A DNA stretch of 64,000 nucleotides. Source: Thermodesulfobacteriota bacterium. GTDB taxonomy: Bacteria > Desulfobacterota_D > UBA1144 > Nemesobacterales > Mycalebacteriaceae. Shown in pieces: positions 15,782 through 17,729 of this stretch. The first letter of the stretch is position 1. Each line of letters starts with the position of its first letter. The position numbers were made by a program, and so were the translations under genes. The notes under the pieces were generated by a model. It was not told where the DNA came from, searched no databases, and worked only from the letters and a program-made list of their open reading frames with translations. Where the stretch lies: assembly GCA_965198945.1 (NCBI GenBank), contig CBDAQI010000013.1, positions 160,001-224,000 of the forward strand, given 5' to 3'.

Positions 15782-15976
15782 TTATATCAATATCAAACCG
15801 ATAAGGGATGAAAACAAGTAGTCGGCAATCGCAAGCACCACAGTGAACAAAATTGACACAAAAAGAACCACTATCGTTGCCTTTACCGTGCTGTCGCGAC
15901 CGGGCCATGATATTTTCCAAAACTCAATCTCGACCTCTTTCAAGTATTTAACAGCTTTTTTCAAATACTGCTGCAA
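15782..15976 (-). CDS. secE: Preprotein translocase SecE (64 aa)
   Basis: EFWKISWP motif plus one TM helix; TTG at 15976 after GGAGGA; between tRNA-Trp and nusG. Confidence 0.92.
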   Translation of the reverse strand: MQQYLKKAVKYLKEVEIEFWKISWPGRDSTVKATIVVLFVSILFTVVLAIADYLFSSLIGLILI

Positions 15977-16007
15977 TCTTTCCTCCGGAAACAGGCAGTC
16001 AAAAAAA

Positions 16008-16080
16008 CAGGGCAGGAGGGAATCGAACCCCCAACCTGCGGTTTTGGAGACCGCTGCTCTCCCGATTGAGCTACTGCCCT
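16008..16080 (-). tRNA. tRNA-Trp (CCA)
   Basis: AGGGCAG/CTGCCCT acceptor stem, anticodon loop CT-CCA-AA, GGTTCGATTCC T arm; no encoded CCA end. Confidence 0.96.
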
Positions 16081-16099
16081 TAAACACCCCATCCGGTAG

Positions 16100-17275
16100 C
16101 TACTCAATAATTCCGGTAACGACGCCGGCTCCCACGGTTCTGCCCCCTTCCCTGATTGCAAAACGGAGCTGCTCTTCCATCGCCACCGGAGCTATCAGCT
16201 CCACTTCCATATTCACATTATCGCCCGGCATCACCATCTCCACACCATCGGGCAGCTTCACAGAACCCGTCACATCCGTAGTCCGCAAATAAAACTGAGG
16301 ACGATACCCGGGGAAAAAAGGAGTGTGACGACCACCCTCCTCCTTCTTCAACACATACACCTCCGCAGAAAACTTCTTGTGAGGCGTAATGCTCCCCACC
16401 GCAGACAAAACCTGACCACGCTCAACAGAATCCTTCTCTATCCCACGCAGCAGCACACCCACATTGTCCCCCGCAACCGCATCATCCAGTATCTTCCTGA
16501 ACATCTCAAGACTCGTCGCAACCGTCTTCACCGTCTCACTAAACCCCACTATCTCAACCTCATCACCAGCCTCTATCCTGCCGCGCTCAACCCTGCCCGT
16601 AACAACCGTGCCGCGACCCGATATCGTAAACACATCCTCCACAGCCATAATAAAAGGCTTGTCAACCTCGCGCACAGGCTCAGGCACATATCCGTCCACC
16701 GCAGACATCAACTCCCGTATCTGACCCGCAGCATCTCCGTCTCCCTCAAGAGCCTTCAAAGCGCTCACCTTCATTATCGGTATATCATCGCCCGGAAACT
16801 TATACTCGTTCAACAACTCCCGTATCTCAAGCTCAACCAAATCCAAAAGCTCAGGATCATCCAGCATGTCCACCTTGTTCAACGCAACCACTATTGAAGG
16901 AACTCCAACCTGACGCGCAAGCAAGATGTGCTCCCGCGTCTGTGGCATGGGACCGTCAGGAGCGCTCACAACCAGTATCGCACCGTCCATCTGCGCCGCC
17001 CCCGTTATCATGTTCTTCACATAATCCGCATGACCGGGACAGTCAACATGAGCATAATGACGCCCCTCAGTCTCATACTCAACATGAGATATGTTTATCG
17101 TTATCCCCCTGTCCTTCTCCTCAGGAGACTTGTCTATGTCCCCAAACTCCACAAACTCCGCCATGTCCAAAACCTTCGTTATCGCAGCCGTAAGCGTAGT
17201 CTTGCCGTGATCAACATGACCAATAGTCCCTATGTTCAAATGAGGCTTGCCCCTCTCAAACTTCGCCTTAGACAT
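16100..17275 (-). CDS. tuf: Elongation factor Tu
   Basis: [37 protein letters not shown]. Confidence 0.99.
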
Positions 17276-17308
17276 ATCTCAAACACCTCCTGAAAAAAGA
17301 AAAATTAA

Positions 17309-17381
<73 letters not shown>

Positions 17382-17394
17382 AGTATCAGTTCCG

Positions 17395-17468
17395 AGCGGG
17401 AGACGGGACTCGAACCCGCGACCCTCAGCTTGGAAGGCTGATGCTCTAGCCAACTGAGCTACTCCCGC
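17395..17468 (-). tRNA. tRNA-Gly (TCC)
   Basis: GCGGGAGTAGCTCAG…TCAGCCTTCCAAGCTGA…GGTTCGAGTCC…CTCCCGCT. Confidence 0.96.
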
Positions 17469-17490
17469 AGACTGGCCGGACTTGTGTTCA

Positions 17491-17573
17491 TGGGGAGGGT
17501 AGGATTCGAACCCACGTAGGCTTACGCCGGCAGATTTACAGTCTGCTGCTTTTGACCACTCAGCCACCTCCCC
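17491..17573 (-). tRNA. tRNA-Tyr (GTA)
   Basis: GGGGAGG/CCTCCCC stem, GCAGACTGTAAATCTGC anticodon arm, long variable arm. Confidence 0.96.
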
Positions 17574-17626
17574 CTCTTCTTGAAAAAAAACAACAGACAT
17601 AATCCAATTTCATCCCGACTTTTTAC

Positions 17627-17699
17627 AGCTGGCGAAGGGATTCGAACCCCCGACCTGCTGATTACAAATCAGCTGCTCTGCCAACTGAGCTACGCCAGC
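17627..17699 (-). tRNA. tRNA-Thr (TGT)
   Basis: GCTGGCG/CGCCAGC stem, CTGATTTGTAATCAG anticodon arm, GGTTCGAATCC. Confidence 0.96.
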
Positions 17700-17729
17700 G
17701 GTAAAACAAACATTTACAATACCGACAAA

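Follow-up and report, generated by a model that had tools for sequence, protein, structure and literature searches.

A private codon set in the duplicated tuf gene of an order of Thermodesulfobacteriota

The tuf locus and its codon set

We analyzed a 64,000-nucleotide (nt) stretch from the genome of a Thermodesulfobacteriota bacterium of the order Nemesobacterales (contig CBDAQI010000013.1, positions 160,001 to 224,000), hereafter the window, and focused on its tuf gene, which encodes EF-Tu. The gene order is tRNA-Thr/Tyr/Gly/Thr, tuf, tRNA-Trp, secE, nusG and rplKAJL-rpoBC (Table 1). The four tRNA genes ahead of tuf form the classic tRNA-tufB arrangement, which relatives have likewise. The genome (1.39 Mb in 14 contigs, 95% complete; denoted G000 in coordinates) contains a second tuf gene, whose stop codon lies 5 nt before the start of rpsJ.

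Table 1 Features of the tuf locus in the window and the location of the second tuf copy.
Feature	Position	Strand	Remarks
tuf (EF-Tu), 391 codons and TAG	16100..17275	-	Open reading frame and translation; tRNA-operon ('tufB-type') member of the identical pair
tuf head, codons 1-356	16208..17275	-	Only GAG/AAG/CAG; 82% G/T-ending
tuf tail, final 35 codons	16103..16207	-	Genome-average codon usage; third-position G+T 0.54; GAA 3, GAG 3
tuf stop codon TAG	16100-16102	-	
31-nt 5' leader of tuf with GGAGG Shine-Dalgarno	17276..17306	-	Identical in both copies; upstream limit of the converted segment
Four tRNA genes upstream of tuf	17309..17699	-	ARAGORN and Rfam tRNA matches
tRNA Thr-UGU	17627-17699	-	ARAGORN, Rfam
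tRNA Tyr-GUA	17491-17573	-	ARAGORN, Rfam
tRNA Gly-UCC	17394-17468	-	ARAGORN, Rfam
tRNA Thr-GGU	17309-17381	-	ARAGORN, Rfam
tRNA-Trp (CCA)	16008..16080	-	Begins 19 nt 3' of the tuf stop; followed by secE and nusG
Second tuf	G000:C11:67893-69068		Between fusA and rpsJ; 100% identical over 1176 nt

We found that the codon usage of this tuf divides into a long head and a short tail. In codons 1-356 all 58 Glu, Lys and Gln codons end in G (GAG 31, AAG 21, CAG 6; no GAA, AAA or CAA), and Ile is written ATA in 18 of 22 cases (ATT 3, ATC 1). The third bases of the head are G 167, T 124, C 41 and A 24, the A-ending codons being 18 ATA, 4 GGA, 1 CCA and 1 TCA. AGA, GCA, ACA, GTA, TTA, CTA, CGA, GCC, ACC, GTC, TCC and CTC are absent. 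In the final 35 codons the third bases are G 13, A 8, C 8 and T 6, and GAA (three times), GCA, AGA, ACC (twice), GCC, GTC and CTC are back. Codons ending in G or T, or ATA, account for 293 of 343 informative codons in the head versus 17 of 34 in the tail (Fisher p=5.6e-6), and the final 35-codon window scored 12.9 standard deviations (SD) under the other windows of the gene (leave-window-out score). The maximum-likelihood change point fell at alignment column 377, about codon 373 and about 19 codons before the stop, while the first GAA is codon 357. Every codon count given in the initial annotation, made from the letters of the stretch, was reproduced. It had also reported an antisense frame broken at a single TCA, and the codon-aligned antisense frame of the head indeed has exactly one stop (TTA 0, CTA 0, TCA 1). 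The frame is open because TTA, CTA and, but for that one codon, TCA are missing from tuf. An antisense gene opposite tuf was rejected; its product would have no G- or T-initial codons.

We compared tuf with the rest of the genome using the longest open reading frames (ORFs) of at least 100 amino acids (aa), taken greedily without overlap. This gave 1259 ORFs covering 89% of the genome, a crude set in which some are surely spurious. The genome-wide skew check suggested by the initial annotation placed the tuf copies first both in third-position G+T content (GT3; 0.79 versus a mean of 0.51, SD 0.058) and in four-fold G+T (0.84 versus 0.54, SD 0.06). They were likewise at the top in the G share of GAR/AAR/CAR codons (0.95 versus 0.37, SD 0.12) and in a tuf-likeness log-odds score (0.37 versus a mean of -0.66, SD 0.16). 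The flanking genes, rpsJ, fusA, secE and nusG have ordinary codon usage, and ribosomal protein genes, fusA and rpoBC ranked between 100 and 1200 in tuf-likeness, in agreement with the earlier view that the effect is limited to one gene. The tuf codon set was matched by no other gene tested in this genome.

The two tuf copies are 100% identical from position -31, which includes the Shine-Dalgarno sequence, to 1 nt past the stop (+1177), and the sequence 3' of the window copy is unique to it. The second tuf that had been anticipated thus exists, and the copies evolve in concert; the expectation that their identity would end near position 16,208 did not hold. The codon break at 16,208 is not the edge of paralogue identity, because the copies are identical through the stop. 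In 13 relatives the two copies differ by 0, 4, 0, 12, 6, 2, 33, 3, 17, 0, 0, 2 and 4 nt, and exact identity extends from 0-31 nt before the ATG (111 in one genome) to 0-17 nt past the stop. While paralogues within these genomes are 0-33 nt apart, orthologues differ by 5-21% in protein. EF-Tu identity between orthologues is 91-95% within the genus and 79-87% within the order, declining with taxonomic distance. Differing codons between copies cluster at the 3' end: the final 20 codons contain 15 of the 80, roughly a fourfold density compared with the rest of the gene, and the initial 20 contain 4. The tails are identical between copies here and in 6 of the 13 relatives. Taken together, these comparisons indicate that the pair represents the known concerted evolution of tufA and tufB. 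In complete genomes the identity of the copies spans the whole gene. In fragmented relatives, tuf fragments at contig ends (residues ~346-391 and 1-38) were considered as tract borders and rejected as repeat-collapse artefacts of k-mer length.

In one relative (G030; loci L012 and L139) the identity of the copies extends 17 nt past the stop, and the tRNA-operon copy carries the first rpsJ codons before tRNA-Trp. These codons are a footprint of a conversion tract that overran the gene's end. As for recombination genes, two adjacent large ORFs of this genome (1022 and 951 aa; G000:C12:111213-115009) each end in a PD-(D/E)XK nuclease domain and are AddAB-like, whereas the genome gave no match to the RecC family.

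A codon usage so unlike the rest of the genome could mean that tuf is of foreign origin or that the gene is a chimera or an assembly error; the initial annotation had raised both as alternatives. We compared the window with Logan contigs of four public runs of one study, which may be the source sample and hence are not independent of the assembly. A 3179-nt contig covers tuf and the adjoining sequence on either side, over positions 16031-17700, with 0 differences. In runs X2 and X3, contigs match exactly over 16099-17306 and then enter the fusA/rpsJ context, so both tuf contexts are real. We also constructed a maximum-likelihood tree of 48 EF-Tu proteins (21 order members, 7 from a sister lineage and 20 picked from 76 outgroup genes). 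The EF-Tu of this genome falls in a clade of its own genus (support 100/100) nested in the order, and all 20 sequences from outside the phylum lie on one side of a 100/99 branch. Transfer and chimera were rejected because tuf is joined by contigs to the flanks of each copy and the tree shows EF-Tu to be native; both copies also stand in canonical contexts, as in the 13 relatives, and the codon pattern is common to the order. We regard a foreign or mis-assembled tuf as next to impossible.

Some further observations concern the ORF lists. Two mechanically called minus-strand ORFs, 15782-16087 (101 aa) and 17268-17600 (110 aa), cross tRNA-Trp and the tRNA-Thr/Gly/Tyr cluster, respectively. They are artefacts of ORF listing, and the real secE must begin 3' of tRNA-Trp. 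Just 5' of groES/groEL, a cluster of small ORFs lacking Pfam matches (G000:C1:212512-221528) is rich in T at third positions (GT3 0.59-0.70); groEL has ordinary codon usage.

Distribution across the order and the conserved 3' boundary

To describe the distribution of the codon set we used an order sample and an outgroup. The order sample comprised 21 of the 22 full-length tuf matches from 30 relatives in 8 families (L021, cut by a contig end, was dropped). The outgroup comprised 80 loci from other phyla matched by the tuf search, of which 76 genes were kept for window analyses; in the four others the match failed to begin within 5 residues, went past the locus boundary or lay outside the range of 380-410 codons. 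A strong bias was found in 18 of the 21 order tuf heads, with a GAR/AAR/CAR G share of 0.81-1.0, a third-position G content of 0.43-0.65 and ATA for nearly all Ile codons (in several, 21-25 of 21-25). The remaining three genes (L008, L010 and L018) showed a weak bias; they were tabulated apart in the pooled codon tables below and omitted from the G-density and C/G-composition analyses. The ORFs flanking the tuf loci of the order (fusA, rplC, nusG, fabZ and skp) were ordinary. This distribution shows that the bias is an old property of the whole order and not a recent mutational tract. The pattern is not the local event proposed at first, since it recurs in 18 of 21 order members from 8 families with its boundary at about the same place.

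The unbiased 3' end is also conserved across the order. The last 35 codons lie a median of 5.1 SD below the other windows and form the lowest window in 15 of 21 genes (leave-window-out), compared with a median of -0.1 SD and the lowest window in 11% among the 76 outgroup genes. In 16 of the 21 order genes the best change point lies at alignment columns 369-385, which corresponds to the last 11-27 codons; in most relatives it precedes the stop by 12-22 codons. Four-fold sites in the last ~19 codons of the 21 genes are nearly even in composition (A 0.28, C 0.28, G 0.20, T 0.24), as opposed to the order heads (A 0.21, C 0.07, G 0.53, T 0.19). Silent sites in the tail vary freely between species.

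We considered several local causes for the tail. An RNA element was rejected: the tail had no Rfam match, its RNA structure is not conserved (consensus energy -0.16 kcal/mol, with 0 covarying pairs), and it holds no site resembling a promoter or terminator. Local sequence context was rejected as well, since matching for next base and G density failed to account for the tail. Among the outgroups, a greater excess of G over C at third positions of the head was associated with a more deviant tail (Spearman -0.50, n=76). G-rich heads with ordinary tails were found in Gemmatimonadota (L115, from a genome flagged as unpublished, and L052), Glassbacteria, several Proteobacteria and a Limisphaerales metagenome-assembled genome (MAG). 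In these outgroups rpsJ lies 6 to 224 nt downstream or is replaced by tRNA-Trp; the same tail occurs in outgroups whose rpsJ is 29-183 nt away and in order members with spacers of 21-29 nt. A ribosome-binding region of rpsJ that keeps the tail poor in G is a weak reading because the same tail is found with a distant rpsJ or with tRNA-Trp downstream.

Proposed decoding selection and competing explanations

To characterize the force behind the bias, we pooled codon tables for the heads of 5 genus members and 13 other order members. The shares were, for genus and other order members respectively, GAG 0.91 and 0.92, AAG 0.93 and 0.95, CAG 0.94 and 0.97, ATA 0.85 and 0.96, and, among four-fold codons, ACG 0.81 and 0.73 and GCG 0.71 and 0.67. 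The pattern thus goes by codon family and not by base: codons ending in G prevail in every family that has one, and ATA prevails for Ile. T and C are almost balanced in two-fold pyrimidine codons (T share 0.53 for the genus and 0.59 for the other order members; 0.64 in the tuf of this genome), while the four-fold T:C ratio is about 75:25. In the genus heads, A:T at four-fold sites is 80:259 (about 24:76) but ATA:ATT is 100:15 (87:13). A preference at the level of bases cannot give both of these ratios, whereas a preference at the level of decoding can. The parity of two-fold codons argues both against simple A>G and C>T deamination, which predicts an excess of T, and against GC-biased conversion, which predicts an excess of C.

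The tRNA gene set is compatible with such a preference. ARAGORN called 45 tRNA genes, one per anticodon except for three with CAU, and every G-ending codon has a tRNA with C at anticodon position 34 (C34). These C34 tRNAs are encoded by one gene each for Glu, Lys, Gln, Leu (two tRNAs), Arg (two tRNAs), Ala, Gly, Pro, Thr, Val and Ser. One of the three CAU tRNAs is presumed to be the lysidine-containing tRNA-Ile. By the wobble rules, two isoacceptors can read a four-fold codon that ends in G or U, and one can read an NAY codon. In the same search no tRNA-Asp was called, and one tRNA gene had an unreadable two-base anticodon; this gene may be the missing tRNA-Asp or reflect an assembly indel.

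Silent sites of the head have diverged among congeners to the same degree as those of nusG and rplC, and yet keep their composition. Such turnover with a stable composition points to a maintained equilibrium and not a relic. On the branch leading to this genome, majority-rule polarization against four congeners identified 42 silent changes in the head: G>T 19, C>T 9, A>G 5, T>C 3, G>C 2, G>A 1 and T>G 0. As the initial annotation had supposed, these changes run towards G and T, and this lineage is still shifting in that direction in its tuf head. The opposite direction was seen in L003, with 42 keto-to-amino changes versus 4.

The explanation that we favor, tentatively and with somewhat less than even confidence, is selection on decoding that is specific to tuf and maintained in both copies by gene conversion. 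A persistent directional force on tuf alone holds its silent sites at G-ending codons and ATA, and within this genus at G- and T-ending codons and ATA; decoding is the likeliest level at which it acts. The favored purine-ending codons each have their own C34 tRNA, ATA would be read by the lysidine-C34 tRNA, and the two-fold pyrimidine codons, which share one tRNA, are left unbiased. Gene conversion passes each change to both copies. The force stops short of the last 17-35 codons, which drift at the average composition of the genome.

Several observations weigh against this explanation. The shift in tuf codon usage is uncorrelated with that of 23 ribosomal protein ORFs (r=-0.002, 59 codons), which share its direction only for GAG, AAG, CAG and ATA, and slightly. 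In tuf-likeness groEL ranks 891 and tsf 1201 of 1259, and three HU genes are ordinary. The check on single-copy highly expressed genes put forward in the initial annotation thus came out clearly: the bias is not common to them, and for this reason it is not ordinary codon selection. Ordinary translational selection is disfavored because the bias fails to grade with expression. The complete loss of bias in the tail is a further difficulty, since translational selection supplies no reason to exempt it: with codon family and next base matched, G-ending codons number 51 of 249 in the last ~19 codons versus 139 expected, and C-ending four-fold codons 70 versus 15. The liking for ATA reverses the usual rule, as 75 of the 80 outgroup tuf genes contain at most 3 ATA codons. 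The higher the G+T content at position 3, the higher it is at codon positions 1 and 2 (r=0.73, n=21, uncorrected for kinship), which hints at a component at the level of bases. Positions 1 and 2 also bear on an earlier remark that several residues had drifted to G/T-rich codons; the trend exists (G+T 0.528 in the 21 order members versus 0.498 in the 76 outgroup genes) but is confounded by the base composition of the outgroup. No reading accounts jointly for the restriction to tuf, the preference for ATA together with G-ending codons, and the exempt tail.

A further point against decoding selection comes from a 61-genome sample of the phylum that contains a sister lineage (f9; ~1 Mb, GC 0.36), in which all 7 genomes have a single tuf, lying inside contigs and in the str context only, that shows no bias. 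Codon usage in these genes equals that of their flanks (GAR/AAR/CAR G 12-21 of 68-74; ATA 5-8 of 23-28 Ile codons; four-fold G 0.03-0.10), and there is no contrast between head and tail. The contrast is as compatible with a link to duplication as with differing tRNA sets; it is a single phylogenetic contrast, confounded by base composition and possibly by tRNA loss. The f9 loci (L173-L179) were also found to combine AT-rich codon usage with a very long EF-Tu branch of 0.68 changes per site and, in the loci seen, no tRNA-tuf copy. This suggests that one tuf copy was lost along with faster protein evolution.

A process linked to recombination is a live rival because the single-copy sister lineage is unbiased and other repeats are rich in G and T. 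In this account, which generalizes the idea of the initial annotation, a strand-specific process, either a bias in heteroduplex repair or damage to the single-stranded sense strand during conversion, would drive converted silent sites to G (and T), and the last ~50-100 nt would escape as tracts reaching the end of homology abort. It would explain why only the duplicated gene is affected, why the zone of bias nearly coincides with the shared segment (-31 to stop) once the 3' edge is taken off, and why differences between copies are denser in the last 20 codons. The silent changes on the branch of this genome have the direction that it predicts. Outgroups with a G-rich head and an ordinary tail belong to two-copy taxa where this could be judged, which was the case for 2 of 5 genomes tested. 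The single tuf match in the other 3 MAGs is uninformative because identical repeats collapse in such assemblies, and in a Gemmatimonadales-like order two copies were found in 4 of 31 genomes, 11 of which had no full-length match. A physical reason for an edge effect is offered by work on Salmonella tuf, where events reaching the gene end are modelled as aborted and a selection point at nt 1126 is described as behaving abnormally (PMC5485169).

Other repeated genes of this genome lean towards the same skew, a point that the initial annotation had proposed to check. Counting an ORF as overlapped by a repeat when a blastn self-hit of at least 100 nt covers at least 30% of it, repeats make up 12 of the 40 most G/T-ending ORFs versus 4.0% of all ORFs (Mann-Whitney p=1.3e-5). 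The association is, however, carried by only about three independent families. The clearest case is an inverse-autotransporter beta-domain gene in two dispersed copies (G000:C1:155412-157053 and G000:C4:55127-56767), 99.94% identical over 1642 nt and almost exactly delimited by the ORF, the C1 copy being split by a frameshift. The pair is rich in G and T (GT3 0.66-0.77), its flanks are ordinary (0.45-0.52), and so are the G005 homologues (~50% identical). Among the 15 genomes searched the gene was found only in G000 and G005, which leaves no independent test across relatives. Another repeat, contig G000:C8, is along its whole 13.4 kb a tandem array with a period of ~3.97 kb and 99.3% identity; it consists of family-2 glycosyltransferase genes with internal ~2-kb repeats (92-93% identity), all with GT3 of 0.55-0.71.

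Against the recombination-linked process, ATA at 85-96% of Ile codons is impossible from any bias directed to G or to keto bases, and two-fold pyrimidine codons are unbiased order-wide. Homogenization reaches the tails, because they are still identical between copies here and in 6 of the 13 relatives. Bias is complete at the 5' end, only 15-31 nt away from the opposite edge of homology. Many two-copy bacteria, including outgroup Proteobacteria, have an ordinary tuf. We consider this process possible but rather unlikely. Its general form, in which bacteria would possess a strand-specific bias coupled to recombination that remodels the silent sites of dispersed identical repeats and spares the last ~50 nt beside the homology edge, we judge to be a little less likely.

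A second competing explanation is selection on the transcript for purine-rich, G-rich and C-poor RNA, for instance so that Rho does not engage the tuf mRNA of the tRNA-tuf operon, in which RNA polymerase would reach tuf without a coupled ribosome. The tail would be exempt in that a Rho loading site in the last 60-100 nt cannot stop transcription inside tuf, and the length of the tail would fit the scale of Rho loading sites. Consistent with this, tuf is in the lowest C/G class of the genome (head C 0.163 and G 0.359; genome mean C/G 0.85). Outside the genus, third bases follow the order G > A > T > C in Val, Thr, Ala and Gly, with A far above T and C in Ile, and the shared leaders are poor in C (18 of 305 nt overall, 4 of 111 in L014). 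The genome encodes rho, whose own codon usage is ordinary, and the unbiased sister lineage has no tRNA-tuf copy. However, pyrimidine third bases before codons starting with C are not rarer (0.256 versus ~0.25); avoidance of pyrimidine-C dinucleotides at codon junctions was looked for and not seen. NAC codons are tolerated, and the base that this genus favors second is T instead of A, with ATA retained. Bacteroidota-type outgroups, which we assume to have a single tuf behind tRNAs, are ordinary, as are secE and nusG behind tRNA-Trp. Transcript selection thus appears improbable.

The initial annotation had envisaged an A>G and C>T process on the coding strand. In its transcription-associated form, deamination would strike the non-template strand of the gene with the heaviest transcription. 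G and T are in excess on the coding strand in this genome, and C>T (9 of 32 sites) and A>G (5 of 22 sites) have the highest per-site rates on its branch. Yet rpsJ, directly behind the other copy, and fusA, just upstream of it, are both ordinary, and there is no order-wide excess of T in two-fold codons, where T reaches only 0.53-0.59. The ATA preference, the exemption of the tail within one transcription unit and the predominance of G>T (19 of 42 changes) are left without account. Transcription-associated deamination is largely refuted, and we give it very little credence. The core of the earlier interpretation that survives is that something is private to the duplicated, converting tuf.

Relation to known systems and significance

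In the literature outside subscription journals that was searched, for most hits at the level of listings, we found no description of this pattern. One of the closest known systems is the concerted evolution of tufA and tufB in Salmonella and E. coli by RecA-dependent gene conversion (Lathe & Bork 2001 and Kondrashov 2007, as quoted in PMC6053082; PMC5485169). As in enteric bacteria, the copies here stand in str-operon and tRNA-operon contexts, and their identity is limited to the coding region and the Shine-Dalgarno sequence. Unlike the enteric copies, which carry the codon usage of highly expressed genes, they have a private codon set and a conserved unbiased 3' tail.

In Salmonella, the choice among synonymous codons of tuf affects fitness measurably (Brandis & Hughes 2016, PMC4786093). 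The bias here resembles translational selection as measured there, in that it is strong, specific to codon families, located in the gene of the most abundant protein, at equilibrium and compatible with the tRNA set. It differs in that it is not common to ribosomal protein genes, fusA, tsf, groEL and HU genes, that it favors G-ending codons and ATA, reversing the usual rule for Ile, and that it leaves the last 17-35 codons unbiased.

Two mutational or fixation biases offer partial parallels. Strand-asymmetric deamination of single-stranded DNA is known from the heavy strand of vertebrate mitochondrial DNA, and transcription-associated C>T from E. coli. Similarly, one strand is enriched in G and T here, and C>T and A>G exceed their reverses. 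In contrast to such skews, the bias here affects one gene and not a replicon or transcription unit, prefers ATA over ATT and shows no two-fold T excess order-wide, and the main change on the branch is G>T. With GC-biased gene conversion the pattern shares the feature that a fixation bias tied to recombination would be confined to the converted tract. GC-biased conversion raises G and C alike, whereas here C-ending four-fold codons are nearly absent and NAC and NAT are balanced.

The gene tuf is a standard 'highly expressed' reference for optimal codons, growth rate and the strength of selection. It would mislead such measures in this order and in several other sampled lineages because its codon set is private. 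The system also provides a natural experiment on silent sites, with a biased body and an unbiased tail, two converting copies, and a single-copy unbiased sister lineage. If the recombination-coupled bias were real, it would be a strand-polar bacterial counterpart of biased gene conversion, of a polarity undescribed so far, and clearest in the duplicated tuf of several phyla. Identifying the force, whether decoding by dedicated tRNAs, a bias linked to conversion or the composition of the transcript, bears on the interplay between gene conversion and selection in bacteria.

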